A stretch of 64,000 nucleotides of DNA from Blasia pusilla (GCA_050084515.1 CM114271.1:7626001-7690000); one strand, 5' to 3'. Shown: positions 2,218-54,907, counted from the first letter of the stretch. Notes: generated by a model not told the origin, from the sequence alone. Numbers and translations: made by a program.

Positions 2218-2634
2218 GAGATGCGGTAAGAGGAGAGGAAGAGAGGAGAGAGGAGAGAGGAAGAGAGGAGAGAGGAGAGAGGAAACTACCTTCAACCGAA
2301 ATAGATACTTTTTTTTGAAGAGAGTTTCCGTTACGTTGAAGAGAGGAAACTTTTTGTGTGATTTTTTTTGCAATTTATTGTTCATTTATTAAACAATCCC
2401 ACAGTTTTTTTTCCTCTTCCATATTTTGGCAACCCCTGTGAGTCGGACGAGTTGCAAATTGCACAAAATTTACAAAACTGAAAAATCAGTGGAATCATAA
2501 GTGTGGAACCAATCACTTTTTCCATCCAAGGTCTGGAAAAAATCTATCATTTGCCCAGGGCTGAATAGAGTTCAAGCTCACAGTGAAGGTTGAGAAAAAA
2601 ATAAAAGTACAATCTAAAACCTCATTTTGCATCC

Positions 2635-5600
2635 TCAAAGTGGTTTGTTTAAAATACTTCAAACTTCTTTGAGGGACAAAATTGGTTGGTGGATTCCTAC
2701 TCCTACCTCCGACTCTCTTAAAACTACTAGCAACACATAGTACATGTGCTTACAAGGAAAATACCTTTTGCCACTTGTCTCTCTTTGGACAAAGTCATCA
2801 CATGAACATGTGGGAAAGCAACAGATGTGCACCACATACACCCCTGTGACACTTGAATTTACAGTGTTGTTCCTGACCCAATACATCCTTCCTATTCCAT
2901 TTCCACTCAGGACATCTTTCGTGGCGATGATCTCCATTTTTGCCTCCCGAGCTGCTGCAATTCGTTTTGCTCTCTCCACCGTTGGCCTACACATTTTGTT
3001 TCTCTTCACCCCATTTCTAGACTCAAACAGAAATAATGGATTGAGATCATCCATCTTATCCGGGTACATATTGACATCAATCTTGGGTTGAATACGAAAT
3101 GCGAAGGTCTGTAATCTGAACATGCTCGAACTTCCCCCATCTATGAGTGCAAACCGGCACTTGTAAGATTGTCCACCGTCTTGAGTGCGATTCGTACTGT
3201 GGCGATGGGCCAAATCGTGGGGGTATTCCCGGGAGCTCCAATGGTAGCCGGATAAGACTTCCGGAAAGCGCAAGATTCATTTGGGCAGAAGAAGTACTTC
3301 AATTGATCCCCGGTCCTCGTGAAACGATCAAAGGTTTGGAGTCCCCAAAACCCAGGGTCGTCGTCTAGTCCTTATGCGATTCTTATTTAGGAAAGTGCCG
3401 CATGCTCTCCTAATGCCATCAGATCCTGCCTTGCAAGTGAGTCCACGTCCTGGGTTGCTTCGAGATATATGCCACCGTTTTAGGTTGCAATCCACTTTCA
3501 TTACCGGAATCCCATATTGTTGAACCACCCCAGTGACAGGATGTTGCGAACTTCCAGCAACGGAGGGCTTTTGAAATAAAACATTCACTGATTTTGGAGA
3601 AGTAACTCCATCACGGATTTGGGGACGGGTCCGGTCCCCGAATACCAGGCGGTGTAATTTCCTCATCCAAATCAATCACCGGATTTGTTCCTCGATCTTT
3701 GCCTCTTCACTGCTGAAGTCAAGATACTTATCTGGTCTCCACGAGTCTCGTTCGGACTGCTCCACCACCATCTGTATGGGACGTCTTGAAACCCGCCCAC
3801 AAATATCCCCACCTATGTGTACGTCTTGCTCGAGTGGAGTTCTAGCTACGCACCGGTTGAAGGCTTCGACATACAATTTTTCATCACCAGATCTCACACC
3901 GCCTACGACATAGAGCTCGTAGATCGCGGCCCTTTTCCTTTTGTTATGCCTTTTGTGAGGAAGATATGGGATCTTTTTGCAAAGCGTAGCATTGCTCTTG
4001 CCTGGTCTTGTTGGCATGCCTCCACAAGTGAAATTCGTTGGCATGCTTGTGACGACCTCAAGAGGAATGAACACTTTCGCTCCACTTATGTTGGGGCGAG
4101 GGCATTTTCATGAACGTTCAATCCACGCAACGACGGCAATGTTAGAAGGAGCGAAAATAACCAGGAGTCAAAGAAATAAGCGGCGTGTCGGAACCAAAGC
4201 GGGTTGCAGGCCGAGGCATCCCATGAGCGACTCGTGACCCGTCGGGTCCCGGCGTGTTGTAACCTTAAACCCACCTCGCAACCCGTCGGAACCCGGCGGG
4301 TTGCAAGGCCGAGGCATCCATGAGCGACTCGTGACCCGTCGGGTCCGGCGGGTTGCACACTCGGGGCGACACCAAACATCTGGATGCAACCCGTCGGTTT
4401 CCGTCGGGTTGCACCCCTTTGGGCAACCGTCGGTTTCCGTCGGGTTGCACACTCGAGCAACCCGTCGGTTTCGTCGAGTTGCACACTCGGGCAACCCGTC
4501 GGGTTGCACACTCGCAACCCGTCGCATCCGACTGACTTGCTTGGTTTCTTGGGTTTGAAATCCATATAATTCCCACGCTTCTCACCCCTGAGCTACAACT
4601 TTACAAACAATTCTCAGCGTGAGCTTGACAAGACAAAATATGAACTCACTGCCTGAAGTTTCCCCATTGTCTCATACATACAGTCCACCAACTCAACCAA
4701 GAGCACAACTCTTTGTACTTCCCCTCAATCGCATGCTTCCTCCACCACCCATAAAGTTCTTCTGGCGGGTCCATGGCCTGCTTCAAGGTTTCTTTGTCCT
4801 TGCGGCATTGGAGTAGAGTGACATGCTCTCTCCTCTTATTCTCCTTGATGCAAGATTTGGTGTACCGGGTCACTGATCTGTTGCCAATGGAAAGCATCCG
4901 ACCTTTCCCTCTCGGTTGAACCTCTCCACCCAGAACACTTCCCGGATAGCAATCCACCCAGGTTGTACATTGTCCGCCATGAACCCATAAATTTCGGAGG
5001 TGGCCTTTTGTTTTCCTTCGGCTCAATAAGAGTAACCAAAGACACATCTTCAAAGCGCCAACGTCTTACGCCTTTACTTCACACACAAATATAGTTTTGA
5101 GTCCCTTCTCCACATGGTCATAAACGTGAGCACCCATCGTCAACCATCCGTTCAGCACTCTGTAGCAAATATCAAAGCCGACCAGCTCGTAAAGATCTTC
5201 CCCTTCCCTCATTCGATCTATAAGATCGAGGCCACTCGAGGACTGTGGTTGACATTTTGAAGACATAGGCCTGGATCCCTCGCCTCCTTGGCCCATGAAC
5301 GCCATCTCTCGAATGAATGGAAATCTGGAGTTGGCCTTGATTCAGCGATGGCATCCATTTCGGCCGTCTTTCCATCCAGAACTCGTATCTCACGCAGCAA
5401 ATTCCGGAAGCATTCAGGATCAGCGAGAAATGCGAGATTTTCCCAGAGTTGCTTCTCCTCAACCGTTGTGATCTCGCCCTGTCCAGGGATTCCAAGAAAT
5501 TGTTCACAAATTTGTGATGCCGTTGTGAGCTTGATCCCGGGCTTTGAACCGGAGAGTTTCAAGACCTCGGCTACTTTCTTCGCCACATCCTCCTTGATGT

Positions 5601-6468
5601 GTCTTTGAATTGCATCGGTCACAGGATGAGTGTGGGAGCCAACATGAACTGCCAGCCTTGTATACTACGACGTGGAGCCCAAGTCATGGACAATGAAAAA
5701 TATGTATGCAGGACACGCTCCAACGCAGAAGGGCGATGCCTGACAATGAGGACATCGATGGTCTCCCGGCGGTATTGTGGCACCCACCTCGTATGGAGTT
5801 TCTGCATTCTTGGGGGGGAATTGCGACGTATTGACTCGCCCGTTGCGCTCTAGATACGGGCATGCTGGACTTCTACACTCCAAGGCTCCCACGCATTGGC
5901 GGCGGAAGACAATCCAAGGACCATCTGGGATGGAAGCACTGGTCCGTTGAAGCCTGCACCATCGATGACAATCAGACTTTCTGTCCATACCCTTCAGGCG
6001 TCCTCCATCCTTCTTTTGAGCAGGAGCAGCAAGTGGAGGCAACTCAAAAATGCAATTACCATCGTACGTGGGCAGCAACTTGTCGACAAGAATGTGCTTC
6101 AACATTTTCAAGGGCAGAGACAAAAGCAAACTATTGCCTGATACTCGCAAGAGGAACGAGTAGGCGGACACAGGGCCCGATTGGTGTCAAGCCGGATCCA
6201 TCGAGGTTGATAACATCCGAATCTCTTCAGGAAGAACAACAATGTTACAAGTGTGCGAAGTTGGAGTCGGCCGGATCTGCAGAGCTTGGAGTTGCAAGCG
6301 AGAGCTCGGAGCACTAGGAAATTCTAGACTGTCTACTTGAGAAAGAGGCAATTGAGGGGCATGCCGTAAACTCTGTATTGACCATTTGCTCTGGTAGGAG
6401 ATTCCATACTTTCTGATCGAGGTCACTTGCTGGACCGTCTCACCTATTATGTCTTCCGTACCTTCCAC
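2635..6468 (-). pseudogene. MULE transposase copy 1 (GCM/WRKY-like zinc domain, DDE core, SWIM), frameshifted, one intron at about 4130-4650
   Basis: RQCVGALECRSPAC...CPH...HTHP; FDICYRV (D1); FMADN (D2); DAFHWQQ (C/D-x2-H); AESVH-like (E); C-terminal CSCDDF...PCKH SWIM. Start codon uncertain. Confidence 0.8.
4200..4530. repeat. Cluster of GCAACCCGTCGG-N3-CCGACGGGTTGC-type palindromes in the transposase intron
   Basis: Repeated gcaacccgtcggtttccgtcgggttgca and variants. Confidence 0.9.
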
Positions 6469-6674
6469 CCTAACATCTTTGGATACAAAGATGGTTCCAA
6501 TTTGAAGAAGAAATCGAGCAGCAGAAAATTTTCATCCTTTGCTCGAAAGACTCACGAGCTTGGGGTCGAATGATTTTGATTGAGGAAGGGCCGCGGATGC
6601 GCCACAAGTGAGCTTAACATAATTATCCATTCCAAGAAGATTCCTCAGGAGGAGGCGAGAATGAGAATATTTAA

Positions 6675-6680
6675 TTTATA
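6675..6680 (-). promoter_or_regulatory. Candidate TATA box of the transposase gene
   Basis: TATAAA about 200 nt upstream of the ORF, conserved in copy 2 (~50445). Confidence 0.4.
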
Positions 6681-6829
6681 GTGAATAGGAAACAGATACT
6701 CCTCGATGATTTTTCTTGACAAGATGAATTCGGTGGGGACATTGTGCGACACAATGGATCCATCAGTAACACATTCAATTTCATGTTGCAATATGTTACC
6801 GCATTTGGGAAGCGAGAGGGTTGCGCATC

Positions 6830-7560
6830 ACACTTGGAACCCGTCGGAGTCCTGGTAACTCGAAATTACCCGAAGCTTACGAAGCACGCAACCGTCGGCA
6901 TCGGACGGGTTGCACGCTCGCTAAACATTGTCGGCGAGCAACCCGTCGCTCTCCGACTTCTTGCCGATACCGCTCCTTCTTGCTCGAAGATGCCGGAGGC
7001 GTGCAAACCGTCTGTTCCCGACGAGTTCCGCGGGTGCCTCGCCTTTTAGCCCAAAGACGGCGAGGCGTGCAACCCGTCGCCGTCCAACGGGTTGCGCAAG
7101 GGCCTCGCCTTGTGGTGCACCAGCCGGACTCCGGCGACTTGCACGGGAAGCCATCGTTCCTAACCCTTGATGAGGGAAGCGTGCAACTCCAACAGTCTCC
7201 GACGGATTGCCCAAAATACGTCCCGTTCCCGTCCCAAACACGGCGGAGGCGCGCAACATGTCGGTCTCGGACGGCTTGCGCGGGTACCTCGCGTTGTTTT
7301 CCGAAGATGATGGAGGCGCTCAACCCGTCGGTCTCCGACCGATTGCTTTCGCGCGCGTGGCGGCGTTCGCGGAGGATGGCGAGGCGCGCAACATGTCGAT
7401 CTCAACGGGTTGCGCGGGTACCTTGCGTTCTTTTCCGAAGCGACGGGGCGCTCAACCCGTCGGTCTCCGGCGGGTTGCTCGCGCGCGTGGCGGCGTACCA
7501 GGATGGCGAGCAGCGCGCAACTGTCGGACTCCGGCGGGTTGCGATTTTTCGCGTCGGACT
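6830..7560. repeat. Palindrome cluster in the divergent promoter region of MULE copy 1
   Basis: Ten or more variants of caacccgtcgg...cgggttgc, dispersed and in degenerate tandem units. Confidence 0.85.
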
Positions 7561-7630
7561 TCCGTAACATCCGCACGTCGCCGTCGAAAGGACGAGCGGG
7601 ACCCAACGGTCAGCCCAACGGCTAGAAAAG

Positions 7631-7638
7631 TATAAATA
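7631..7638 (+). promoter_or_regulatory. Candidate TATA box of the cargo gene
   Basis: TATAAATA about 280 nt upstream of ATG 7913, just after the palindrome cluster. Confidence 0.5.
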
Positions 7639-9064
7639 GGGCAGAAATCGCTCATTTCCGGTTTCTCATTTCGCAATCTTCATTCCTCACTCCTCACTCT
7701 CCCGCGCAGCAACTGATCAAATAAGAAGGGGCATTTCACGGGGCGAAACATCGCGAGTCGATAGGAGGGAACGAGAGCGAGACGGTGCGACCAAGCGATA
7801 TCGGGACAATTCGAGCTAACCATCAAGGCGAGACGAGCTCCCATCTCGACATCAGCAAGGCGACTGATCAAGGGATTCGTCGTGGACATAGGTGGAGGAA
7901 TTTCCGGAAAAAATGACGAGGAAAAAAACACAAGCCAACAAGTCTGGGAGCTTCACTCCCAAGTCCATTAGGACTCCTGCGTTAGCTTCTCCTGGGCCTC
8001 GTTCGGCGAATGAAATTAGGCAGCAGGAAATCGAGGAGCGGGAAAGGGAAGCGGAGATGCACAACCAAGTGCTTCTGGCGAGACGTGTTCAAGCGGTGCT
8101 AGATAAACGAACGAAGAGGCCAAGACGTCGCAGGCCTTGAAGAAAAGGATCGCAGGCAAAAAAGAGAGAAAAGAAGCGTGACGGGCGTCGGTGAGGAGGG
8201 GAATTGGCTAAAGCGGCGGGAAAAAGCGATAGCCATTGGCGATAGCCCAACCCGTCCAACCGCAAGTGTTGAGATGCGGAAATGTCCCCACGAAGTCCGG
8301 GACACAATCAACATAGTGGAAACAACACCAGTTCAAATCGATGACGCGAGGTCATGAGGACCGCCCAAAGATGGAGATGGTGGACATGGCGAAGAAGCCG
8401 AGAGCGGTCATTCTCGACTCCAAGCCCGGCGGAGGACATCAACCTCTATCGGATCGACAAGTTCCCAATCGATTTGGCAGCCCCTGTCTCAGACAAGTTA
8501 GCTGGTCAAGAAACCGACTCCATTTTCGAACGGGTAAGAGAGGTTCGGGCTTTTTAATTATGTGAATTGCAATTCATTGGGATTTCGGTGTAGCTTATTC
8601 CTCTTGTCCGGTTCGACGGTGGTAAAGCGAGATGGCACTCATGGAGGGCCACAACGCCCCGAGGATTCCACTCTGCCGATTAAGGACAATGGAATACGTC
8701 CACGAAATACAGTCCGACGAGGACATCGCAAAGCTAAAACAATCAGCGGTGACAGCATCCTACGTGGACAGCTTTCCTCCCTTCTATGTTCAGCCTTACG
8801 ACGAGCATGGAACCCAAGCTCTGGTTACCGAGGAGGACTTGGAAAATCTCGACACATTCTGGAGGATGCGAGACCAGGACTTCAGAAGGCAAGTTGAGGG
8901 CACGGAATTCAGCTGGATGAGGAATCTGCATTTCTTCATCTGGGATGGAAATCACAGGTTCATGGCGTGGACCAAGTTTGCGGAGGAACCTCACGAGTTG
9001 CATTCTTAAAAATACGCCCCAATGAGTTGCATTCTTAAAAAAACAACCTCACAAGGCGGCCTAT

Positions 9065-9430
9065 TGAGCAACCCGTCGAACTCCGACGGTTTGCTTTGGG
9101 CCAAAAACTAGTTAAATCTATGTTCAATCAAACAAGTCGTCGGAGTCCGACGAGTTGCAATCTTAAAAAAACATCCGAAAAAGCGTGCAGTCCAGCAACC
9201 CGTCGGAGTCCGACGAGTTGCAATCTTAAAAAAACATCCGAAAAAGCGTGCAGTCTAGCAACCCGTCGGAGTCCGACGAGTTGCTTACCTGGCATTAGCA
9301 AGTCTGAATGCAAACCGTCGGACTCCGATGGGTTGCATCATTTAGCTTGTTGCTAGAATCCGACCCTGAGCTATGACGACCCGTCGGACTCCGACGGGTT
9401 GCAGGAACCCATGTAATTTCCTGACGGGTT
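9065..9430. repeat. Intronic palindrome array including 63-bp tandem units
   Basis: cgtcggagtccgacgagttgc recurs at 9138, 9201 and 9264. Confidence 0.9.
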
Positions 9431-11369
9431 GAGTTTGGATGTGCAGGATTGTATCGGAGGGGAATGTCACCCACCATTGGATCCAGGACTGCGATCGGGT
9501 GAGGAAGGTGCTTACAACGCACCCGGGAGAGTACAAGGGGTTCTTGGGCGATGCCCTCATCAATCAGATGCTTGCAAAGGGTGCTCAGATTAAGAAGAAA
9601 ACTTGGGCAAACAAGTTTATTTCTCAAGATGGGGCCGTAACCATCCTTTGCTGGTCGAAGATACAAGCCACGAAGAAAAGCGCTGCACTGGAGCTGGAGC
9701 GGAGGGAGAAGGTATCTGCGTCTGAGCACGCCAAATTCATCCAAGCTGCTGTATCTGTTGCAACGAAATACACGGTGAGCAAGATGCAGCGATACATCAG
9801 CATTCTCAACCCCGAACTTGGTCTGGAGTTCTACAAGGAGCTCAAGGCGATTATCAAGCGTCAGCGGAAGAGGGATGAAGATCCGCATGGTCGGATTGGG
9901 GAGAAAGTTTCGCTGGATCGCGTGCATTGTTTTGCGTTATCCGGGATTAGTGAGTTCAGGAGGATACGACTGATGAAAATCAGTCTCGAGGGCTCAGAGG
10001 CCGGAAGAGGGCAAAGACACCATCCTCCGGTGTGTCCGATCCGTGATCTCGCATTGGCTCGTGAATGGTCGTTCGGGACGCGTTGTGGGTAATCGGGAAG
10101 TCCGTCTTTGGGCCGATGCAAGCGGAGCTCAGAAGATTAGAGCCCATTCCGCCGGAAGCAAACCTTGAAAGTTCTGGAGATTACAAGGTTTGGCTCGACG
10201 ACATCCGAGACAAGCCAACCAAGAACCCTGGATTCAAGACCATGTTCAAGGTTTGCGTCCTCCCTCAGGCAGAGCTTGACGAAGAAGTAGAGGGTAACAA
10301 ACGGGATCAAGCGAAGAAGAAGCGAGATCTACAGGAGCAGACGGCCGATAATGTTCGACTAAAAGCTGCCCAACGGATGGTATTCATGTACCTCGTCTAG
10401 TGTAAGAATGCAGGTACGTGGGGAAAATTACCGGTAGCCTTGAAATTGTGGGCTTTGCCGCCGGATGCAGAGACATTCTCCATGTACGACGTGGAGATGG
10501 GTCAGCATATGTCGGATTGGGAGGTGGAGAATTGCCCCATTTGGCTCGACTTCAACGATTCTGAAGACATCACGGATAAGGACTTACGAGTGCTTCATGA
10601 TGCAGTGGCCTCAGGACAACCCGACATCCCCAATTTCGTCCAGCCTGAAGACTTCTTCGGAGGAGATGAAGAAGAGCAGGCCCACGAGACAGCTGAGTTG
10701 GCTTCCAAGGTCCGGACAACCAAAGACAAATCCACAGCGGGTCTCAAAGGCAAGGCGAGGGGAGGGAAAAATTCAGAGGCCGAGACTTCCCAAAGAGAGC
10801 TGAAGATGAGAGGCCGAGGCGAAATCGTCCGACGAGCAGGGAGAGAGCGTCCTCCTTCAGTTCACCTCTTTACAGGATGACCTGAACAGCTTCAGTTCTC
10901 AAGCGTCGACAACTGTCATCGAAAAATTGACAACGTTGGGACGGAAGCTCCAACAAAACGGGCACGCTGCCTGGACGGTGAATGGAGTGGTGGAAGAGGT
11001 TGCGGTGGATCTCTTGATCGCCGATCTGCCCTCGGGGTTGCGACTTTGGGGCAAAAATCCGCGGACGAGGTACTGAGTGGAATCGCCGCTCACTTATGAC
11101 CGATTGCACTTTTGTTCTCCTTTGAAGACGCCTATCCCGAGTGGCGGGGCTGCTTCTTGGTGTTTTGGAGGGAGCGAGGAGGAGCTCTTCAACCTCGGTC
11201 GTCAAGAGGTCGCTAAAGTGGAGGACGGCACAATCGTGGATCATCAAAAACGAGTACCCACTCCGATCCGCGACGAGTCAAATTCGGGTAAAGCTCAATT
11301 CCTGTACAATAATTTCAATTATCTTATAATGATGTGTAGAATGAGAGTCAATCTGGGTTTTTTTTGTCC

Positions 11370-11735
11370 GTGAGCAACCCGTCAGAAGGCGACGGGTTGC
11401 TTGCTTAGAGCAGCCCATGCTAGGCTGAGAGCAACCCGTCGGTTTCCGACGGGTTGCATCTTTCCCACATACACAGGGAAAACCGCGGTGTACGTGCAAC
11501 CCGTCGGAACTCGATGGGTTGCAGTTGATTTTGGTTTTTGGATGCAACCCGTCTAATAGCGACGGGTTGCTCTCAAGCAAGCATGGGCTGGTCTAGGCCA
11601 GCAACCCGTCGCCTTCCGACGAGTTGCATCCGAAAACCAAAATCAACTTGGAAAACCCAAAAGCAATTGCAACCCGTCGGGTTCCGACGGGTTGGTCAGG
11701 GACAAAACAACCCATCGGACTCCGACAGGTTGATC
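11370..11735. repeat. Intronic palindrome cluster inside the methyltransferase-like region
   Basis: About 7 copies, e.g. gcaacccgtcggtttccgacgggttgca at 11431. Confidence 0.9.
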
Positions 11736-14126
11736 CAAAGTCAATTATTGAAAATCTTCTCAAGGCGACTTCTTAAGTTTCTGACATTGTTTCGTCTTGA
11801 TTTCTGAGATGGACCACTCCCTACGTGTCTTTGCCGTTCGGCCCGAGCACAATTTCCAGGTGTTCAAGATCCAGGATCCTGTGGATCCATGCTCAGATGG
11901 GTACAGCTTAGATAGTTTGTACAATTCCCCCCCGGGGATTTACATGCAAAGACAGTACCCCACTTCTGGGAGGAAGGGAAAAGTCGCCAGCCCTGATGCA
12001 AACACTCATTGAGCTCTGCTCAAGGCGGGGTGACTTGGTGTTTGACTTAGTGGGCCTTTCAGGGGCGAGTATCAGAGGCGCCTGGCAGAGTGGCAGGAAC
12101 ATTCTTTGCCTCGAGAGAAGGCAGGAACTGTTTGACCTTTGCAAGGAGGCAAAGGCAGAATACGAAAGGCTCGTTGGGGCGTACAACTCTCCACCGAAGC
12201 CGAGAGCTCCTGTTCCAGAGCCACCCTTGGTAGTGACTCCATCGTCACTTCCAACGATTCCCAAAATCGGGAGGGCAAGGCCGAAAGTGATTTTGCAAGA
12301 GCTCTCGGACGATGACGAGTGAGTTCAAAGAACTCAACGACCCAGATTGATTGCAGAGTTGGAGTAGGGAGTTTTTTGATAATTTGGCAAAAGATTTCAT
12401 AGAATAGATCAAATATACAGTTCCGAGCTTTTTTCGGATGATATAAAGCAAAAGATTTTTTCGATCGATGGTGGTGCTTGTAAATGTTTGCTGATCATTT
12501 TGTCTTTTCGAATGTGATCGTCTATGTACTCCACGGTCTTCTACTTTGCAACCCGTCGGATTTCTCCTGCTTGCAATTTTCACTTTATGACCACTGCAAC
12601 CCGTCGGATTTCTCCTCCTTGCAACTTTTTGCCTTTTGACCACTCGACCCTTTTTACCACCTCGGGCGCTTGATCGATTCCGGACAGATTGCCCGATCGG
12701 ACCCTTTTGGATCAGCGATCTGGCGGGCTTCTTCCTTGGCACCTTCCCGCCTTTCGTAAAAGGCGGCGAGGCTTCTTTTTCTTCTCTCGAGGCGTGTTGG
12801 ATTCCTTCTACTGTCAGGCGGTTGCCATAGTGGTATTACCAGGGGACGGAGCGAGATATTGATTTGGATGGGTGTCACATTGCGAGCGTACAAGGTATCT
12901 TTGCCAAGGAAGGCGGTGGGACTCGAGACAGGTTACATGGGACCGTTATAGTGTACCAAGGGGGGGGCCAAGGCTCTCCAATTCGCCAACATTTTCGATC
13001 CCCGTCTACAATCGGCTAGAGGAGCCACTTGAATCCCAGGACATTCCTTTGGTACTGTCACCGAGGAGAGTTAGGAGTAAATTTGTAGATGACGAGGCTG
13101 AAGAAATCATAGACTAGGTGAAATGTACATTTCCGAGGTTCCTTCGGAGGTAATAAAGGACGAGATTTTTTCAACCCATAATGGTGTTTGTAAAATTTTT
13201 ATGGAATATGTTTTTGGACTTGTGGATTGTGTTCTTTTAGCTACTCAGAATTACAATTCTACAACCCGTATGATTCCGACTTTTTGCTTTTTGCCCACTG
13301 CAAATTTTTAACCATTTCCAGGCAACCTCTCGGATTTCGACAGGTTGATTTCGCTTGAGTGATCGGACTCTATCCCGGTGAGACCAACCGGCGCATTGTG
13401 GCGGGCTTCTTGACTTTTGGCTCGTTCCCCTTCATTCGTCGAACCAGTTGTAGGTTTCTTTTCTTGTCTAAGATGTGCAAGATTCCTACTACCTGTCGGA
13501 TTGCCATTTCGGATTCCCAACCCGTTAGATCGTCGTGGGTGCAGGGTGGAAGAAAATCACTTCTAAAAATCTTTCGTTTCTTATGGTGAGCTTTCTTACG
13601 GGTTGGGAGGGGTGCAGCTTCTCGGTTTCTGAGCCTTAGGATCTGATTTTTTCACATTTCAGAAAGTTGGTCTTGAGCAGACACCATTCATAACCGACAA
13701 AAAGTTGGTTATGGGGCAATTTAGGGGAGGCCATGATGCAGGCAACAATCCGTGCAAAAAGAGAGGTACCCATCCGGGTGGTCCTCCAACAGAAATACCA
13801 AGGGCACTGTTTTTTGTTGACCGAGACAGGGAATGTTGAGAAACTTAGGCTCACATGGACGGTGATGGAAAAATGTTTAGGGTGGTCTTATGATGTCTCC
13901 TTTTTTCTCGCCTCCAGGAAAGAGGAGGTTTTTTTAGGGCCAAATGTGGACCACTACCTACTCTCTTCTAAAGATTTCCTGAATTTGAAAGCAAACGAAA
14001 ATTTTAAATATGTCAAAAAGTTTTGAAGAGAGGAGGCGGATTTGGCCCTTTTTTTTTAAGAGAGACTCTCCTTTCTTCCTCTCTTCCTCTCCCCTCTTAC
14101 TCTCTCCTGCCAGAATACCAGCCCCC

Positions 14127-15769
14127 TCCTGATCTCTGCGTATATTGCTTGTAGCCTCCTCCACTTGTCTCATCAAGCAGAGAAATCCATCCTCCAACCC
14201 AGTCATGCTCCTCCTTGTGATCGAGTTCACCAACTCCATTTTCGCTGGAACCTCACGGACCAACCGCACCTGTAACCGTTTGCCTTTTAGCAAGATGCTC
14301 AACCTCAATGGTCGGCGTCTTAACTCCACCTCATATGCATCTAGGAATGTATTCCCCAAAACTCCGTCCATGCCATCCATTTCGCACACAGTGAAATTCT
14401 CCTTCAACTCGAATACTCCGCATCCTACTGTCAAACCCAAGACCAAATCAGAAGTCCGATGAGACTTGCCTCCTGCAAATCCCACTCGAACAGGCTCGTC
14501 CGCCTTAGAGGTAGACAGCCCCAGTTCCTTCACGATTCTCGGGCTTAGGAAGGAGTGCGAAGCACCTGTATCCACGAGCAACAACACATCGCGATCAGCA
14601 ATCTTGGATCTTAGGTACACCAAATTGTGCGTCCTCTTGGTGACTTGAAGGGACGTCTCGAGATCGCCCGCCAACAGATGCTTAGCAGCAAACGCAATCA
14701 TACTCCCATTACTAACCTTCAGTTTCGAACACCCTTTCGACAGGTGCCCTGGTTCGCCACAGTTGTAGCATACGACCTTGCCGTTCCCTGACTTTGAGTG
14801 TTGGCCTCCTTTTGGTTTTGCATGAAGTTCCACTCGTTTTGCTGCCGCGGCATACGACTCTCCTGGTTCGTGCTGGCCCCCACTCCAGCCTCTTTTGAAC
14901 GCCTCCTTATTTTTCGACTTCTTTGAAAAAACTTTTGGCTCGAAGGGTTTCTGGGTTTGGACCTCATCGTCCCCAATCCGCTCCGCTAGCTTCAGAAGGT
15001 CCGCGCACGTCTCTGGCAATGTCGGCATTCGGTAAAGGGCCTTTTCAGCGCTCGGCTTGAGTCCACTAATGAAGATAGCCTTCTTCGCGTGTTCATCCAT
15101 CTTTGGACTAGAAGTCAGCTTCGCACTAAACTCCCTCACATAGGCGCTTAAGGAACCACTCTGCCGCGTCCGCACGCATTCCACCGTGTCATGCAACCCT
15201 TGGTACTCCGGAGTGAACCGATCCCCAATCAACTCCTTGAACTCCTCCCAACTCAGAGGAGACTCGCCGCCCAGATATTCCTCTCATTGAGCTGTCCACC
15301 ATTGTAGAGCATGATCCTTCAGGAAAGAAACGGCTACCGTCACCTTGTCCTGCTCAGCAGCCCTCTTCGCCTCGAGGTACAGTTCCAGTTCCGTAAGGAA
15401 ATCCTTCACTTTCCGCGAGCGCCCCACTCCCGTGAATGGTGTGGGTAGGTTCGTCTTGCAGAGCTTTTTGCCCACACCCGGGTTTCAAATGGCCTCTAAC
15501 TCTGCAATCCGCTTGCTTTGCTGGGACATCTGCTCCACCAACACCTTCAACAAGTCCAACGTCTGGCTCCACTCCGTCCTTTCCCCTGAGTTTGGGCCCA
15601 CTGGCCCCGCGGAAGGAGTCGCCTCTGGGACGTCCTCACGACTGGCATTCAGCTCTTCGGGAGTCTCCGTCTCCTCTATAGCTTCACGGTCCGGCATTGG
15701 TTCCTCTCTTGGTTCACGTCGCTTGATTCGGCGCTTCTTGGCTTGTTCTCCCTCGATCGCCATTTCCAA
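14127..15769 (-). pseudogene. Gypsy A gag and aspartic protease
   Basis: Gag PTPFTG...FLTELELY...LKDHALQWW; zinc knuckle CYNCGEPGHLSKGC; protease LLVDTGASHSF and VLGNTFL. Confidence 0.92.
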
Positions 15770-16914: not shown

Positions 16915-19900
16915 ATAGATCTAGTTCCAAAAATGAGAATTGAATCCAATTCTTTAAACCATAAACATTCAGAACCCTAGTTCCAATTGACTTTGTTGAC
17001 CTCCAAACTGTATCATAAAAAACCTAAGCGATCAGCCTCTATCGGGACTAACTTATTTTTGGAACTATAGATCTAGTTCAAGAAATGAGAACTGAATCCA
17101 ACTAACTATTGGATGAACATTTGGGACCATACTTCCACTTGACGTGGCTGGACTACAAACTAGTTGTAGAAATGATAAGTTGACCAAAATATCTTAACGA
17201 TGAGCACTCAAGAATCCAAGTTGTGAATGACATCTCCCGCCTCCCAATAAAAAATATGCATCCAATTGCATCGAAATTATAGATCTAGGACTAGTTTGAT
17301 AGCCCTAAATCCAAAAATAAAAACTTGACCCAACGATCTTAACGATGAGCATTCCGAACTCTAGTTCCAAATGACATCGCTGGCCTCCATTGAGACTACC
17401 TCACTATCGAAACTAGAGATCTAGTTCTAGATAAGAGAACGAGGACCAATCAGAATTGTCATTCTGATTGACAACCAAAACATTGCCGCCGTCGGGACTA
17501 ACCAACTATCAGAACTAAAGATCAATTGAAAGGAATGAGAACTCATCCCCAAACTAGGGTTCCATCTCCATAAATGATATTGTTGGCCTCCATCGCCACT
17601 ACCTCACTATCAAAATTATTGATCCAATAAAAAATATACATCCAATTGCATTGGAACTACAAATCTAGTTTCAGAAGAAATCCAACAAGAAGTAAGAATG
17701 TGTGTCAATCGGAAGTCTAGTTCCAAACCCTGAACCCTAAACTCTGACATGAAAAGTAGTTGTATAAATGATAAGTCGACCAAAATACCTTAACCACGAG
17801 CACTCGAGAATCCAACTCTAGATGATATCCTCCGCCTCCTATTAAAAAAATGCATCCAATTGCATCGGAACTATAGATCTAGGACCAATTTGATAACCCT
17901 CAATCCAAAAATGGAAACTCGACCCAATGATCTTAACAATGAGCACTCCGAATGCTTATTGTTAATGAGCATTCCAAATAACATTGCTGGCCTCCATCGA
18001 GACTACCTCACTATTGGAACTAGAGATCCAGTTCCACATATGAGAGCGAGGATCAATCAGAATTATCGTTTGATTGACAACCAAAATATGGCCGTTGTCG
18101 GGATTATAGATCCATTTAAAGGAATGAGAACTCATCCCCAAAATAGGGTTCCATTTCCAAAAATGACATCATTGGCCTACATCGCCACTACCTCACTATC
18201 AAAACTTTTGATCCAGTTCTCAAAATTAGAAGGAGGATCAATTGTTACTCAAGTTCCAATTCCAGGAATGAGAACTAATCCCTACACAGGGCATTCGGAA
18301 TCGTAATCACCAAATGACATTACTGGCCTCTTTCCAGACTACCTCAGAATTGGAATTGTAGATCCAGCTCACGAATTTAGAATGAGGAAGAATCAAAATT
18401 CTAGTTCCTAATGACAACCGGAACATGGCGGTCGTCGGGACTAGCCGACCTTGGAACTACATATCCATATACAAAAATAAGAACTTATCCCAAAACTTTG
18501 GTTCTAGTTTCAAAATGGGAATTGATCCCTAAACTAGGGTTTTCAGTGGAAAACAAGAGGACTTGACCCAACCTTCTAAACGATAAGCATTCAGAACTCT
18601 AGTTCCAAATGATATCTTTGTCAAGACTACCCCACCATCACAACTATAGATCCACTTCTCTAAATGAGAACGGGGATCAATCAGAACTCAAGTTATGATT
18701 CCAAAAATGAGAATTGATCCCTGAACGAGGCCATTGGGAATTGTAGTTCCCAAATGAAATTGCTCGTCTCTTTCTGTGCTACCTCACAATTAGAACTATA
18801 GATCAAGTTCTTGATATGAGAACGATGATCAATTAGAATTCAAGTTCCAATTCCAAAAATGAGAACTAATCCCAAAACGAGGGCATTCTGAAATGTAGTT
18901 CCCAAACAAAATCGCTGGCCTTTTCCCCGGCTACCTCACAACCGGAACTATAGATCCAATTCTTGATATGAGAAAGAGGATCAATTGGAACTCAAGTTCC
19001 GGTTCCAATAATGAGAACGGATCCCTACACTAGGGCATTCCGTAGTTTGCGAGACAAATCACTAGCCTCTTTTCAGAATACCTCACAATCGGAACTATAG
19101 ATCCATTTCTTGATATGAGAAGAAGGATCGATTAGAATACAAGTTCCGATTCCAGAAGTGAGAAGACGTCCCTAAACGAGGCCATTCAAAACTGTAGTTA
19201 CTAAATGAAATTGCTAGCCTCTTTCCCGGCTACCTCACAATCAGAACCGTAGATCTAGTTATGGAAATAAAATCGTAAATAAATTTGTTGGCCTCTTTCT
19301 CGGCTCCCTAACAATCGGAACTATAGATCCTCTTGTGATACCTACAATTTTGCAATTTTCATGATCTATACATTTTTTTAGTAAAAATAGATGATAGATG
19401 TCTTCAAGCATGAAGGTGGAAGACTCTTTGAAGTAAAGTTTGTACATACAAGGCTTTCTTGAATATTTTTTTGTATATTGAAAGAATCTGAATTACGGGA
19501 ATGGATCATGAAGCTTCTAGGAAAAGGCAGAGAGGTGAAACATCAAGGACTTGCCTTGGAGGAGAGAGAAATTAGCTAACGAAGTCGGAAGACCAAGAGC
19601 GAAGCTTGGAAAAGACAACAAAGCACGAATAAAGAACTTATTAATGAAGTACTTCGTTCTTCAATGAAAATGGAAGACAAAGACCAAAGTACTTTGTTCT
19701 TTAACCAAGGACCAAGACAAAACCACAGTACTTCGCGAAGGAACGAAGAGCAAAGCACTTAAAACAAGAGTGAAGAGTAAAGCGCTTCGTGAGTTCACAA
19801 AGAGGAAGATGTCTCGACTTCCTGGCAAAGAGAAGACTGTCCACGATTCCAAGCGACACAAGGTTAGAGTAGTTAGGCTAGGAAGAGGTGTGACTTTTCG

Positions 19901-22000
19901 GACTAGATAGGAAGTTAGAATAGTTATGACCAGCGGATTCCTATGGATCATAGGAAAACTTAAGAGAACCGTAGATCAAAGTAGTTAAAAGATCTCAAGA
20001 GGTGTCTATTTAGCAAGAAGCGCTTCAGATCTTTAGTACTGATACCGTTTGGAAGGATATATAAGGATCATCAACGTAGTTATCAGCATCATTCTCTTAC
20101 AATGTCCTTATGCTATAGAAATGGTCCGAGTAAGGGAGTAGTACCCTCTCATGCTTGTATACACTTTGAAGCCTTCTTGTTCTTGATGGAATAGAAAAGA
20201 ACCCATTTCTTCATTCAGATGTGCGGCGTGTATGCATGAGTAAGCTTATTGGGTTTGTAGAGTGAGGAGTGGATTGGGAGAGCAACTTTCACCAATAGAA
20301 TAATCAACATCAAGATGTGAGAAATCTGTTTGACAGAGAGTAGGCTGCCAGGACGGATTGAGTTCCGAAAGTAGGAGAAGCCATTATGTTGCTGAGATCT
20401 CTGTGAGGTTCTTTGGTGTTGAATGAGGATCTGCTTGAGCGTTCATTTGATTCCACTTGAGAGAATAGAGAAAGGAAAATCTTGGTACTTGTGAGAAGAG
20501 AATGAGCGAAAGAATGTTTGAATATGTTTTGTATCAACATAACACTTTAAATTTTTATTTTGGATAATAGTGATACTCTTGGGGATTGAATTTTATCAAT
20601 ACTTCCCAAAACAATTGCTTTTTAGTATCCTTGTACATTATACGAGTTCTCGATATGAGAAGGAGAATCAATCGGAATTCAAGTTCCGGTTCCAATAACA
20701 AGAATTGATGCCTAAAGGAGGGCATTCGGAAAAATAGTTCCCAAATGAAATCAACGGCCTTTTCCCGTCTCCCTCAAAATTGGAACTAGAAATCGAGTTC
20801 TTGATATGAGAAGGAGGATCAATTAGAACTCAAGTTCCAATTCCAAAAAGGAAAATTGATCCCCATACTAGGACATTCGTAACTGTAGTTCCCGAATGAA
20901 ATTTTTGCCCTCTTTCCCAACTACTTCACAATCAAAACTCTAGATCTAGTTCCAAAACTGAGGAGGAGTATCAATCAAAACTCAAATTCTGGTTCTAGAA
21001 ATGAGAACTGATCCCTAAACAAGGGCATTTGGAAACGTAGTTCCCAAATGAAATCGTTGGCCTCTTTCTTGGCTAACCCACAATCGGCACTATAGATCTA
21101 GTTCTTGATAATAGAAAGAGGATGAATAAGAACTCAAGTTCCGGTTCTAGAAAGGAGAATGCATCCCTATGCTAGGGCATTCAAAACTATAGTTTGCGAA
21201 TGAAATCGTTGGCCTCTTTCCAAGCTACCTCACAATCAGAACTATAGATCCAATTCTCGATATGAGAATGAGGATCAATCAAAACTGGTTCCTAATATGA
21301 GGGAAAGGATCAATCAAAACTGGTTCCTAATATGAGAAGAAGGATCGATCGAAACTTAAGTTATGGTTCCAGAAATGAAAATTGATTCCTAAACAAGGGC
21401 ATTCGGAACTGTAGTTCCCAATGAAATCGCTAGCCTTTTTTCCACCTAACTCAAAATTGAAATTAATTCTCGATATAAGGAGGATAAATCAGAACTCAAG
21501 TTCCGATTCCAGAAAGGAGACATAATCCCTACACTAGGGCATTTGGAACTATAGTTCACAAATGAAATCGCTGGCCCTTTTCCACGCTACCTCACAATCA
21601 GAACTATAGATCCAGTTGTGGATATGAGAATGAAGATCAATCGCAACTCAAGTTCCGGTTCCATAAATGAGAATTGGTCCTTAAACGAGGCCATTGGGAG
21701 CTGTAGCTCCCAAATAAAATTTCTTGCCTCTTGTCGGGCTACTTCATAATTGCAACCATAGATCCATTTCTAGAAATGAGAAGGAGGATCAATCAGAACT
21801 CAAGTTCTTGTTCCAGTAATGATAACTCTTTTGGTTAAAGTAATGAGAACGATGAGAATTCAAAACTCTACTTCCAAACGCTAACGATGGCCTCCGTTGG
21901 GACTATACCACCATCAAATATAGATCCAGTGCTAGAAATGAGAACGAGAATTTACCGCTTACTAGTCCGAAATCAAGTTTGAAATGAACTCGATGAGACC
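16915..22000. repeat. Degenerate tandem satellite, ~152-bp unit
   Basis: acctcacaatcggaactatagatcc-like motif at 18781, 18933, 19080, 19232 and 20923, 21075, 21227; more scrambled toward both edges. Confidence 0.9.
19331..20643. mobile_element. Unclassified ~1.3 kb insertion in the satellite (LTR-like)
   Basis: Satellite unit breaks after ctatagatcc (19330) and resumes at gagttctcgatatgag (20644); purine-rich, with TATATAA near 20058; no convincing TSD. Confidence 0.45.
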
Positions 22001-32335: not shown

Positions 32336-35259
32336 GCATGAACTACTGCTAAGCTTGGATCAAGTGAACCATCAATGTTAGGAAGATGACATGGCGCAAA
32401 GTTATGCACGTGGTCCTTCCAAACCATACCATCTCCGCACTTCAATAAGAGAACGCCAGATGACAAAACCTCATGCACACTCAAGATAGTGCACCCTGCA
32501 GTTACATCCAACATCATGGGTGTCGTATGCTCCAATTAGACATAGTCTCCTTAATAGACGAATGGCTGTAGGAACTCTGACTCTCAGCCATAAAGTAGCA
32601 AGTACGGTGAGAAAGAGATTAAGGATGCATGCATATTGAATCTGTATCCCATCGCCAACAAGAGGTCCCAATCTCTTTGGTAATCTCTGTGCAAACCATA
32701 CTTGGGTAATCCTCTCTTCACCGTCTGCACAACCCTCTCCGCTAGTCCATCCCCCTTAGGATGATCTCGCAAAGTGGTGCGGTGGTCGATCCGCGCCTGA
32801 TCACATAAGCCCTGAAACTCATCGCGAAACTCTGTACCATGGTCTGTCAACACCTCACGTGGTGCACGGTAATGGCTGAGCACTTGATCTAGGAAGGCAT
32901 ACACTAGTCCCTCACTTGCTTTGTCAGGCAATGCAACCAACTCTATCCACTTCAAGAAGTGCTCCACCATCACCAACACATAACGACTATGGCACTCCGT
33001 CAAAGGTAAAGGTCCTGCAAAATTCAAACTCCATCTTTAACCTAAACCCATGATCGAAAGTTGATGCACCTGTGGAGTTAGAACATTGAACAATGCTTGG
33101 ACCTGATCACACACCATGCACATGGCAACAAACCGTTGAATGTCAGTCTGCATACCTTGCCACCAATACTATATCTGGAGCAAGCTATGCATCTGCTTCA
33201 CTCCAAAATGACCCAACTCCTCGTGGGCATGACGCACCAAACGTGCTCTCTATGAAGAATGAGGCACTAAATGTACTCTACCATCCTCCCAAACTTGCAA
33301 CACATGTGTCCCCTCCCACCAGAACCGTCTTGCTCATTGTAGGATTCGATCCCGCTCTCTAGTACCCACTGTGCTCACGACAGCCAATGGCAGGTACTCC
33401 AAGACTACTCCATTGTTATGGATGTCTCGGCCATCTGTCGTCTCCTCATCGGTCTCTGGATCTAAGGACTCTCCATCATACTTTGCCTTCGAAGTCTCAA
33501 TATTCTAGGTCTCCATAGCCAACGAGCCCAAATAGGTTGACGCGTGCCATCCTTGTAATAACTCCTCATCACTCTCTCCATGCCAACGAGCTCCAGTTGC
33601 ATCCCGCTGGCTCGAGCATGGGTAATGGCTCCAACCATCTGCATCCAAGTTAAGCGTCCCACGTCTATGTACCACGTGGAAGTCATACTCAAGTGACAAA
33701 AGAGCCCACCTCGCAAGCTTCCCTTCAAGCTTGTCGGACTCCATCAACTACTTAAGAGGCTGATGATCAATAACGATGGTAAAGGGATTTCCGAATAGAT
33801 AACATGTAAAATGCACGATAACCCACACTGCAGCCAAGCACTCACCCTCATACAAGCTATACTTTGCCTCTGTAGCATTGTTCGAGCGAGTAGCGTAAGT
33901 GACTACGAACTCTCTATCCTCATCATAATGTTGGGTGAGGACGGCTCCAAGCCCCAACATTCTCCAATCGTTATGCAATTGGAAATGATGCCCCCCGATC
34001 GGTCTCCTCAATATGGGTGTGCACGTTAATTGGTCCTTGAGCAGCTGAAAGGCTCTCTCCTGCTCATCCCCCTAGTTCCACTCTTGATCTACCTTGGTTA
34101 GCGAGGTTAGCGGCTTTGCAATCGCATTGAAACCCTTGACATAGTGTCGATAGAACTTCCCATGAATGCATGAACTTAATAGATAGATGTTCGATAGAGC
34201 CAATTCCATGATAGAACGTTGATAGAGCCAATCCCATGAATGCATGAACTTGACTCACATCTGTAGGGCGTGGAATGCGTGAAATAGCCTCTACCTTTTT
34301 CCGTTGCGCACCAAGGCCACCTGGGCATATGGTATGACCCAAGTACTCAATCTGGTCATAGCAAAACCTGCACTTGCCTGGATGTAGCTTCAACCCATGT
34401 AATAGCAATCGTCGAAACACCTCCTTTAGATGTCACTCATGCTCCTAAACCATGGCGCTAAAGACTACGATGTCATCAACATAACACCTAGAAAACTCCA
34501 GACCTCCCAAGATCCTATCCATGACCCTCTGAAACTCAACCGGGGCGTTCTTTAACCCAAATGGTAAGAACCACCAGTGGTACAAGCAATCCCTTCCATG
34601 AGGATCGATGCCCTAGAATGCCGTCTTCTCCTTATCCTCCAATGGGATAGGTAGCTGATGGTATCATGTTCAAAGATCTAACGAAGTGAAGACCTTTTCA
34701 TGCCCAGTAGCATCAAAGATCTCATCAGGGATGGGCATGGCATACCTATCGGACTTTGTCTCCGATTGATAGGTTGATAACCTCCACACATCCGCCTATC
34801 CGTCTAGTTGCCATGCACATCCTTCTTGGCGGGCATGACTTTGGCAGATGCATACTCTCCATGCAACATCTCCACGAGTCCTACTCCAACCAAGTCGTGG
34901 CTCCTATTATGAATCCAAGCACTCTCCATATCACTTTACTTGTAGGGTCTTCGAAAGATCGGTGTGTCACTCGACAACTCAATGCAGATGTCGGGACCCT
35001 TCAGTGTACCCAAATCATGCATTCTAAATGCAAAAAAGCTCCTATAACTCTTCAAGAACTGATGTATTCGGCGCCACTCTTTCCGTCAACTTACGGCCTA
35101 AATCTCCATTGTGATAACGGTAGGATTCTCCGGGGCGGGTATCGGTGGTTGCTATGGTGCAACCCAGTCTTGGATATAAGAACTCGACTACTCCCCTGCA
35201 GCCAACTACAAACTTTGATCTCCTCCACATGTAGTATATACACAACAGCTGTGATCTGT

Positions 35260-40965: not shown

Positions 40966-42010
40966 CTATAGCTCTCCAATCGTACTCCACAATGGTGAAG
41001 AGTTCTCGCCAACATGGGAAGAGACACCCGCCATGGCTTGTCTCTCCGTGGGACTATCCGCTACACAGACATCCTCCGCATGTGCGTTCCCCTCCAACAA
41101 GTCTCCAGGCCAGCTAGCACTACCTGTGAAAGCTGCCAACGTGATTACACACTCGCCTCGTGATCGACCACCTCGTCCCGCAAAGTGCACGGGTAACTGA
41201 CTCATCCGCCCGTCACTTGACCGCCACCGTGGCCGATAAGCAACGGTCTCCTCCCAAAAGTCAAGGATGAATCCTAGGGGATATAACACTGTACTCCCCA
41301 CCAACATATCATACGACTTAGCTGGTGTCGTAATCGCTTGTGTGCGCACCATAGCACTATCCATCGCATGCTCTGGCTAGACTCAGAAAACTATCTCCTC
41401 TTGAGTCATATACTGTGTGGGTGACACGCCCCCAATCGAGGTCTGTATCTGGAAGGGACAAGGCTCAATGTCCGCCTTCCGTAACCCCAACGCTAAACAT
41501 GCCGCCTTCCCTAACATCAAGGGTTGCGCTCTCGCATCAAGTAGGACGCGCTGTGGGTGGTATATTGTCCCCGTAGGATTAATCAAGCGAAATACTCCAG
41601 CTCGGCTATTCAGTAACACTACTCCAAGTGTCACCACTACTCGCTCTATGGCCGGTCGAGCTGGCATATCTACCAACTTTGCCGCCGCCGCATGCCATGA
41701 CTCTGTGGGAAACGTCCCAAGCACCGGCTCTAAGGGCAAGTCCACCACCTCGTCAACTACCTCTGAACAAGAAGCTATCACCACTCCATGCTCACACAAT
41801 GTGGCGGCAAGCCGAAACACCTCAGCTTGTCCAACTCCCAACGTCGCCAACTTTGTGGCAGAAAATAGCGGAGTTTGACTCACTCTGGTGGCCACCTCCA
41901 ACACTATGGTCGACACTGACTCCACTCGATCCAGCATAGGAGTTGTCACTCCAACTCCTCGTGATGTCAACGTACTTGCCTGAGCTATACACACCGCTGG
42001 TCGTCGAGGC
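40966..42010 (-). pseudogene. Element B gag-protease linker and aspartic protease-like domain
   Basis: RVLLDARAQPLML (paralog D: VLLDLGAQPLML) and SYDMLVG. Confidence 0.7.
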
Positions 42011-54495: not shown

Positions 54496-54907
54496 GGATG
54501 CAAAATGAGGTTTTAGATTGTACTTTCATTTTTCCATAACCTTCACTTTGAGCTTGAACTCTATTCAACCTAGGGCAAATGATAGATTTTTTCCAGACCT
54601 TGGATGGAAAAAGTGATTGGTTCCACACTTATGATTCCACTGATTTTTCAGTTTTCTAAATTTTGTGCAATTTGCAACTCGTCGGACTCAGAGGGGTTGC
54701 CAAAATATGGAAGAGGAAAAAAAAACTGTGGGACTGCTTAATAACTGAGCAAAAAAGTGCAAAAAAATTCACACAAAAATTTTCCTTTCTTCAACCCAAC
54801 GGAAAATCTCTTTAAAAAAAAGTCTCTATTTTGGTTGAAGGTAGTTTCCTCTCTCCTCTCTCCTCTCTTCCTCTCTTCCTCTCCTCTTACCGCACCTCGT
54901 CGAGGCA

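Follow-up and report, generated by a model that had tools for sequence, protein, structure and literature searches.

The VANDAL21/VANC21 anti-silencing system of Arabidopsis was reportedly treated by Sasaki et al in 2023. According to the accessible part of Hosaka et al (2017, PMC5735166), VANC21 motifs occur in the introns and upstream regions of VANDAL21, as dynamic tandem repeats whose number of units grows and shrinks between related copies. A second set of relevant elements comes from red algae: as given in the available portion of a preprint (10.1101/2025.02.11.637652), Plavaka/Mutator elements of Bostrychia moritziana carry the accessory genes PAG2, with a PF01555 methylase domain, and PAG3, with an N-terminal ParB-like domain (template 7BNR_B); tandem inverted-repeat arrays lie beside PAG3, and homologues are found in Chondrus Mutator elements. 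The authors propose in the same portion that the PAG3 ParB-like protein binds its own transposon, and the self-binding idea for ParB-like transposon accessory genes is thus already on record for red algae. Here we analyse a stretch of 64,000 nucleotides from Blasia pusilla (GCA_050084515.1 CM114271.1:7626001-7690000; "the window" below, with positions counted from its first letter), which contains two copies of a large DNA transposon, copy 1 (2218-14127, plus strand, 11,910 bp) and copy 2 (42011-54897, minus strand, 12,887 bp, inverted relative to copy 1). Both copies carry an accessory, or cargo, gene, which an earlier note (the sequence-only reading) had named and which is oriented divergently from the transposase gene, and a 27-bp palindrome recurs in their non-coding DNA. 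We put at roughly 40% the probability that these palindromes form arrays of putative binding sites for the element's own cargo protein, in the manner of VANDAL/VANC.

As far as the available text on VANDAL21/VANC21 goes, the two systems are alike in being Mutator-type (for our element an assignment qualified below), in having weak or absent terminal inverted repeats, in combining a transposase with an accessory gene, and in the enrichment of a motif in the element's own non-coding DNA. The comparison with VANDAL/VANC drawn in the sequence-only reading fits the anatomy, since there too the introns and upstream regions hold motif arrays in which the number of repeats changes (PMC5735166, same part). 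The two systems differ in that the VANC motif is described there as a 9-bp non-palindromic word with a single orientation and ours is a palindrome of 27 bp; by the resemblances detected, our accessory protein is ParB/sulfiredoxin-like (ParB/Srx-like) and methylase-like; and binding and hypomethylation have been shown for VANC, whereas our system is known from sequence alone. The red-alga elements, in the portion of the preprint at hand, are likewise large DNA transposons with PF01555 and ParB-like accessory domains, and 7BNR_B is also among our fold matches. However, two proteins are involved there, fused to SET and 2-oxoglutarate (2OG) oxygenase domains, whereas here there is one protein in which neither partner domain was detected; our host is related to liverworts, and the likeness is one of description, shared template 7BNR_B and PF01555 only. 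In a full-text literature search that did not cover the red-alga supplements, neither a single-protein ParB/Srx-plus-methylase-like cargo nor these palindromes were found described in a land-plant-type element.

The palindrome consists of a 12-bp arm, a 3-bp spacer and a second 12-bp arm. With up to 3 mismatches, GCAACCCGTCGG-N3-CCGACGGGTTGC matched 33 times in the window (16 in copy 1 and 17 in copy 2), compared with 0 matches in any of 100 dinucleotide-preserving shuffles. When up to 3 mismatches were allowed per arm, we found 58 palindromes, of which 26 lay in copy 1, 32 in copy 2 and 0 outside. The 11-mer half-site (≤1 mismatch) matched 86 times against 0.61 ± 0.80 expected. The 12-mer half-site (≤2 mismatches) matched 121 times, 60 in copy 1 and 61 in copy 2, all between 2.4-13.3 kb or 42.6-54.7 kb, and gave 0 matches in the ~39 kb of the window beyond both elements; confinement of the motif to the element family is thus a statement about the 64-kb window. 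All the clusters listed in the sequence-only reading were found in both copies, to which we add further degenerate single palindromes, and its claim that the motif is missing outside the elements agrees with these counts. Its claim that recognisable exons are free of the motif holds for 120 of the 121 half-sites, the exception being a weak match at 45059 with 2 mismatches. The exact palindrome gave 0 matches in the prokaryote genomes scanned. A pattern scan of metagenomes (17 specified bases) returned 117 stretches, which were rejected as chance matches in unrelated, apparently bacterial contigs, since 115 of them hold a single half-site and only 2 hold two, their median GC content is 67%, and none is similar to the element except for one 29-bp match.

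The geometry of the motif is strict. Among 42 pairs of head-to-head half-sites less than 10 bp apart, 41 have a spacer of exactly 3 bp, and most of the 39 apparently solo half-sites have a decayed partner arm beside them. Across the 58 palindromes the information content is high over the 27 bp and falls to ~0 bits in the flanks directly outside, so that the unit being kept is the whole palindrome and not the repeat unit. The best-conserved blocks are the outer GCAAC/GTTGC, about two helical turns apart, a spacing that would be expected of a symmetric dimer. We counted 176 departures from the consensus, of which 144 affect one arm only, while 8 are matched on the partner arm and so compensated; shuffling the partner arms gives 6.6 ± 2.4 compensated changes, and 666 of 2000 shuffles reach 8. 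The arms therefore change independently, which fits two half-sites rather than a selected stem. A conserved hairpin was accordingly rejected, as compensatory changes are not in excess and there is no sign of selection for pairing. We also rejected CpG decay as the main source of the variants, since CpG transitions make up 37 of the 176 departures, and transitions and transversions number 96 and 80.

Each copy holds four arrays. Array A (4234-4525 in copy 1; 52625-52934 in copy 2) consists, in copy 1, of palindromes and half-sites between open reading frame (ORF) blocks of the transposase. Array B (6836-7542; 49287-50350) is intergenic, between the divergent transposase and cargo genes, with units of ~65-67 bp in copy 1. 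Array C of copy 1 (9068-9432) fills, with 63/64-bp units, the gap 3′ of the ParB-like exon of the cargo gene; that of copy 2 (46911-47611) starts 11 nt past the GTAAGT that follows the same exon, and its 64-bp units are inverted with respect to copy 1. Array D of copy 1 (11374-11733) holds 7 palindromes with mostly non-repetitive spacers, partly in an inverted duplication, and precedes the exon with the methylase motif I; array D of copy 2 (44602-44801) holds 3 palindromes plus half-sites. Beyond the arrays, copy 1 carries two direct half-sites on the plus strand (12548-12607), 48 bp apart at 12548 and 12596, downstream of the cargo gene and each with a degenerate partner arm, and copy 2 a further motif cluster at about 42600. 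A degenerate single palindrome at 2429-2455, ~210 bp inside the left end of copy 1, is conserved in copy 2 at 54674-54700; the degenerate palindromes that the sequence-only reading had not listed are at 2429, 13261 and 13322 in copy 1 and at 42989, 43598, 43669 and 54674 in copy 2. The sequence-only reading placed the arrays in introns and the promoter region. In partial support of a position in introns, arrays C and D sit between exon blocks that are collinear with a full-length cargo relative, and array A sits between ORF blocks; the only RNA joint that spans an array, 4124>4654, does not have GT-AG ends in copy 1.

Unit spacing in arrays B and C is mostly 63-67 bp, and the spacers of arrays A and D are mostly non-repetitive. 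With the palindromes masked, spacer similarity was kept only in the 4 orthologous array pairs (E 2e-5 to 0.004), and none was found in any of the 24 non-orthologous pairs (best E 0.19). The palindrome is therefore the sole sequence common to the four arrays. The arrays differ between copies in unit number and orientation, being partly inverted, yet they retain the same consensus. The ratio of observed to expected CpG was 0.78-1.44 in arrays and 0.64-0.86 in exons. Taken together, a fixed palindrome in unrelated spacers, array turnover with an unchanged consensus and the independent decay of arms point to sites that are under selection where the lineage is active, and whose two halves are read by a symmetric dimer.

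The cargo gene of copy 1 (7894-12319, plus strand) has a ParB/Srx-like exon at 8626-9006, middle exons at 9433-10877, the N-terminal part of a methylase-like region at about 10846-11291 and an exon with its motif I at 11912-12319. In copy 2 the gene lies at 44183-48623 on the minus strand, with the ParB/Srx-like exon modelled at 47584-48093 and the methylase N-terminal part, including a motif IV-like DLPSV, at 44736-45374. The exon blocks of both copies are collinear with P0086, a liverwort protein of 1207 residues; the cargo of copy 1 is defective, as the end of its ParB-like exon is missing. Between the copies the ratio of nonsynonymous to synonymous divergence (dN/dS) is 0.25 at a dS of 0.48, and 0.14 at a dS of 0.66 for the ParB-like exon; given the ratio of 0.25, the cargo is a constrained gene under purifying selection. 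We found 83 relatives of the ParB-like exon at E ≤1e-3, the best 36% identical. Among 20 that were looked up, all 13 with an organism name come from Riccia sorocarpa and the other 7 are ENA, JGI or Logan records. A further search returned 32 long cargo paralogues, all from Riccia sorocarpa and with 38-95% identity. No Pfam family matched any of ten long cargo relatives, and a search with the ParB-like exon among longer proteins found nothing. Four Riccia relatives bear the source label 'Trimethylguanosine synthase', which is without support in this analysis.

An AlphaFold model of the ParB-like exon, based on 49 aligned sequences, reached a predicted local distance difference test score (pLDDT) of 88.6 and a predicted template modelling score (pTM) of 0.82. 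In a fold search of the PDB with this model, the top ten matches were all ParB or Noc, followed by KorB and sulfiredoxin, and by its predicted structure the N-terminal domain of the cargo resembles the ParB/Srx fold. For the relative P0005, a 570-residue model was confident over residues 95-390, which comprise the ParB/Srx-like domain and a helical region (273-386 confidently helical). The arginine-rich cytidine triphosphate (CTP)-binding motif of ParB is GERRxR, and other ParB/Srx members have DG(Q/H)HR at this position. The cargo family reads W-D-G-N-H-R there, in an invariant-like manner; a GERRxR-type motif was not found, and DGNHR is closer to the DG(Q/H)HR of the other members. With bacterial ParB, Noc and KorB and their parS, NBS and OB sites, our system shares a ParB/Srx-like N-terminal fold and the presence of many palindromic sites on the encoding replicon. 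Unlike in ParB/parS, no helix-turn-helix was recognised here, DGNHR stands in place of GERRxR, and the sites are 27 bp long, as opposed to 13-16 bp in bacteria, and far denser (26-32 per 12 kb). The parS comparison made in the sequence-only reading is thus borne out for the palindromic sites and the predicted ParB N-fold, but the ParB-like part is not a helix-turn-helix and no DNA-binding domain was recognised.

At the C-terminus of the cargo, Pfam PF01555 scored 22.0 bits on the window exon and 23.7, 24.8 and 26.2 bits on relatives, all below the cut-off of 26.7, and the match is limited to 50-56 positions at the very end of the profile, its S-adenosylmethionine (SAM)-binding part. For one Riccia paralogue a PF01555 match had been precomputed, and 26 of the 30 named Atlas clusters nearest to the cargo C-terminus (score 0.94) are PF01555, of phage and bacterial origin. 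The SAM-binding motif I (FxGxG) is kept, as DFAGGWGAT in 5 relatives, in variant form in 2 more and as DLVGLSGAS in the window. The catalytic motif IV of PF01555 is (D/N/S)PP(Y/F/W). Here it is non-canonical: 14 relatives read D[LM]P[ST]G and the window reads DLPSV, and this conserved departure makes methyl transfer by the cargo C-terminus doubtful. Among the Riccia sorocarpa relatives P0013, P0086-P0088 and P0105-P0132, 14 proteins keep D[LM]P[ST]G as a family-specific form in the methylase-like domain. PDB sequence and profile searches with the methylase N-terminal exon and with P0087 returned nothing significant. What the sequence-only reading had called a ParB-methyltransferase-like cargo is therefore supported by the ParB/Srx-like fold and the PF01555-like C-terminus, with the reservation that the match is below the Pfam cut-off and motif IV is non-canonical. 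The accessible part of Iyer, Zhang & Aravind (2016, PMC4738411) describes ParB modules associated with PF01555-type or Dam-type methylases in phages and bacteria, and independent methylase transfers into eukaryotes; that part makes no mention of land-plant-type transposons carrying such methylases. The phage and bacterial character of the nearest Atlas clusters agrees with this association, whereas the ~700 residues of unassigned sequence between the ParB/Srx-like and methylase-like domains, and again motif IV, set the cargo apart from it.

On the reading that we favour, the 27-bp palindromes would be cis-acting sites, present at high density in non-coding element DNA, for an element-encoded, sequence-specific, dimer-binding protein. 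The cargo protein, with its ParB/Srx-like N-domain, long helical middle and PF01555-like, methylase-like C-terminus, would be the binder, and as the product of a constrained accessory gene on the same element it is the first candidate; ParB, Noc and KorB also read palindromic sites. By analogy with VANC of VANDAL elements and TnpA of Spm, binding at the shared promoter region and in introns of both genes could mark the copies of the family, and marked copies might be kept transcribed or shielded from silencing, possibly via the methylase-like module brought to DNA. That a protein binds, which protein this is and what its binding does are points that we infer, as are confinement to the whole family and the self-contained protein-plus-site system of the sequence-only reading. 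The proposal of that reading, cis-sites for a dimeric protein encoded by the element, is plausible and has partial support, short of proof.

Several observations weigh against this reading. The fold matches are weak (Foldseek best E 7e-3, none ≤1e-3; TM 0.35-0.44), and PDB sequence and profile searches with the ParB-like exon and its alignment returned no ParB and nothing significant. When the 570-residue model was compared with known folds, no DNA-binding match was convincing, the best ParB probability being 0.69 and the rest noise. In ParB itself the nucleotide-binding N-domain is not the part that reads parS, which is done by the helix-turn-helix. The motif is unchanged between cargo lineages at a dN of 0.09-0.2, and no covariation was seen. 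Furthermore, both copies are dead, and decay after insertion cannot show selection on sites; family confinement is drawn from 64 kb; and the RNA reads are few, come from sister copies and are silent on binding. A bolder version of the binding by the cargo protein, which we regard as improbable, would make this protein a eukaryotic, transposon-borne, ParB/KorB-like nucleotide switch that loads as a dimer at the palindromes, spreads or slides from four loading zones and carries the methylase-like module over the copy to mark it or shield it from silencing. This would amount to ParB-parS-like self-recognition on plant chromatin, probably of phage or bacterial origin, with protein and site free to co-diversify among dozens of liverwort paralogous lineages.

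Among the other explanations, one that we consider unlikely but worth weighing is that no dedicated protein partner exists, and that the palindrome is a minisatellite which propagates itself, or a structure prone to recombination; slippage, inversion, unequal exchange and gene conversion would have spread it through the non-coding DNA of the element, where it is tolerated. In keeping with this, arrays expand, contract and invert between copies, and by eye the divergence of orthologous palindromes in the two dead copies seems similar to that of the flanking sequence. In a public DNA run 81,183 contig pieces matched the element, and the family is therefore highly repeated in the organism sequenced; these contigs contain the array-length variants 4181>4535 and 4405>4441. 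They also contain the joints 2428>9260 and 9282>2455, whose breakpoints both fall in palindromes (2429-2455 and 9258-9284) and which represent both arrangements. Palindromes would on this account be recombination hot spots, and they do appear to bring about deletions or inversions within the element, from which non-autonomous derivatives could arise. Word depth in the DNA run was lowest in the array bins, which fits arrays varying among copies. However, whole units are what slippage duplicates, and the four arrays have only the 27 bp in common and no spacer; the spacers of arrays A and D are mostly non-repetitive; and the exact 3-bp spacer and the consensus persist over lineages with a dS of up to 0.48.

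Another candidate binder, taken up below, is the transposase of the element. Copy 1 is nested in a Ty3/gypsy retrotransposon and flanked by the 9-bp target-site duplication CCTGATCTC (2209-2217 and 14128-14136); copy 2 is flanked by the 9-bp duplication CGTCGAGGC, given on the plus strand (42002-42010 and 54898-54906). The two duplications differ and lie in different flanks, and in-silico removal of copy 1 with one duplication restored an uninterrupted Ty3/gypsy pol frame over the junction. From the duplications and the restored frame it follows that the copies are true insertions of a mobile element. By blastn they are 74-91% identical in pieces. Their ends are imperfect, purine-rich subterminal inverted repeats in which the outermost bases differ and which hold no palindrome, with (GA)n-like purine-rich tracts and tandem AGAGGAG units at 2229-2284 and 14066-14105. 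Long terminal inverted repeats were not found at the ends of either copy. As Mutator-like elements (MULEs) without them are known, for example VANDAL, their absence does not exclude membership.

Transposase ORF blocks extend over 2662-6186 on the minus strand of copy 1. The N-terminal block (5668-6186) is rich in Cys and His, the C-terminal block (2662-3276) is SWIM-like, and the gene is interrupted by an in-frame stop at 5665-5667. In copy 2 the blocks extend over 50895-54492 on the plus strand, with an N-terminal ORF at 50895-51428, and are broken by a TGA at 51429-51431. Each copy has its own premature transposase stop and copy 1 also lacks the end of its ParB-like exon; both copies are dead. 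The SWIM-like finger matched PF04434 at E 0.013 and 15.5 bits, below the cut-off of 19.6, and in the nearest Atlas clusters SWIM occurs in 12-49% of members (scores 0.82-0.83), a lead only. Neither the Mutator DDE transposase (PF10551) nor any other MULE or DNA-binding model was found on the transposase ORFs at E ≤0.1-1, in a scan that included a 460-aa read-through with X at the stop. A homology search gave a single match, P0089, which is 26% identical, unannotated and without a Pfam domain, and the transposase may be too divergent for the Pfam Mutator model. The sequence-only reading had named the element a MULE; the putative Mutator assignment draws on the 9-bp duplication (the MULE range is 9-11 bp) and the SWIM lead, and no Pfam MULE model supports it. 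The transposase halves of the two copies have a dS of 0.13 (dN/dS 0.44) and the cargo halves a dS of 0.48, so that the copies are mosaics of differently aged halves, which suggests that modules were exchanged between sub-lineages of the family.

If the transposase bound the palindromes, through its Cys/His-rich N-terminal domain, the arrays would be internal transposase-binding or trans-activation sites. We consider this unlikely as well. DNA-binding zinc fingers of Mutator transposases are Cys/His-rich, as are the N-terminal ORFs of both copies (5668-6186 and 50895-51428). The motif has stayed unchanged where transposases are close and cargos far apart by dS. Some palindromes are near the ends: each copy has a degenerate one ~210 bp in from the left end, and single ones occur at 0.8-1.6 kb from the right end. 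However, the purine-rich ends themselves are without the palindrome, most palindromes are central and kilobases from the termini, and no Pfam DNA-binding or MULE domain was found in these ORFs. The element may also be compared with En/Spm, Ac and AtMu1c. These have a short motif, repeated in direct and inverted orientation and read by an element-encoded protein that also regulates transcription and methylation; TnpA of Spm binds such motif clusters. Their clusters are terminal or subterminal, whereas the arrays described here occupy internal positions, namely introns and the intergenic region at the centre, and neither end has the motif. The AtMu1c transposase alone binds and activates its own element (accessible part of 10.64898/2026.08.24.746577).

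A role as RNA or as single strand, in which transcript hairpins feed or decoy small-RNA silencing or cruciforms affect transcription, is improbable. Three of the four arrays lie in transcribed gene regions (A in the transposase; C and D in the cargo gene), and array D of copy 1, folded as RNA, gave -230 kcal/mol (z = -18.7 against shuffles) and a long foldback. This foldback is specific to the copy 1 lineage: at 11354-11630 palindrome-plus-spacer units form an inverted duplication that is absent from copy 2, and stable single-strand folding follows trivially from palindromes and one such lineage-specific duplication. Compensatory changes are, as given above, not in excess, and a 12-bp stem is short for Dicer-type processing. 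The RNA consisted of three raw runs with the same species label, of 44, 66 and 41 reads, numbers that do not suffice to model a gene or to place the ends of transcripts. Nearly all reads are 95-99% alike to the element and hence come from sister copies. By strand they fit a transposase transcribed from the minus strand of copy 1 and a cargo gene transcribed from its plus strand. Depth was zero in bins 6110-7753, the intergenic region with array B, in all three runs at very low overall coverage, and the largest arrays are intergenic, which also argues against a transcript role. Four reads skip 4125-4653 at the 4124>4654 joint mentioned above, spanning array A, and may reflect either splicing in a sister copy or a copy without array A.

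Least probable of all is that the palindromes serve a host transcription factor and give the element a bidirectional promoter or enhancer that the host controls, for example in response to stress: inverted CCGAC/GTCGG cores lie at the centre of every palindrome (two each), CCGAC is the core of dehydration-responsive element/C-repeat (DRE/CRT) elements, and the largest arrays lie between two divergent genes, but all 12 bp of each arm are conserved, most strongly in the outer GCAAC outside the CCGAC core, and three arrays are inside genes and not upstream of them.

If the element's own ParB/Srx- and methylase-like protein reads the palindromes, this would be a second plant transposon with a sequence-specific regulator and its target sites, structurally unrelated to the first, VANDAL/VANC, and a connection would emerge between elements of bryophytes and those red-alga transposons whose accessory genes are ParB-like or carry PF01555. 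The protein and its 27-bp site would form a compact pair that is directly testable and perhaps usable for targeted chromatin or methylation work, and the diverged paralogues in one liverwort genome (38-95% identity) would allow a natural test of covariation between protein and site. If no protein binds, the arrays would be an instructive palindromic minisatellite that drives deletions and inversions within a transposon.

Other repeats lie elsewhere in the window. The Ty3/gypsy-type retrotransposon that hosts copy 1 covers 302-2374 and 13961-15283 on the minus strand and is split between protease and reverse transcriptase; Pfam matched gag, zinc knuckle and protease on 13961-15283, and reverse transcriptase- and integrase-like ORFs belong to the same retrotransposon. 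A 152-bp tandem satellite forms several blocks (4.2 + 4.2 + 2.3 copies, 74-76% matches) in an AT-richer stretch at 17240-21880. Two direct retrotransposon copies with RNase H and integrase Pfam matches on the minus strand lie at 32389-35040 and 36705-39483, ~4.5 kb apart and 71-78% identical. Finally, inverted repeats of ~1.2 kb, 76-80% complementary and ~2.6-4 kb apart, occupy 58411-59620 and 62231-63441.

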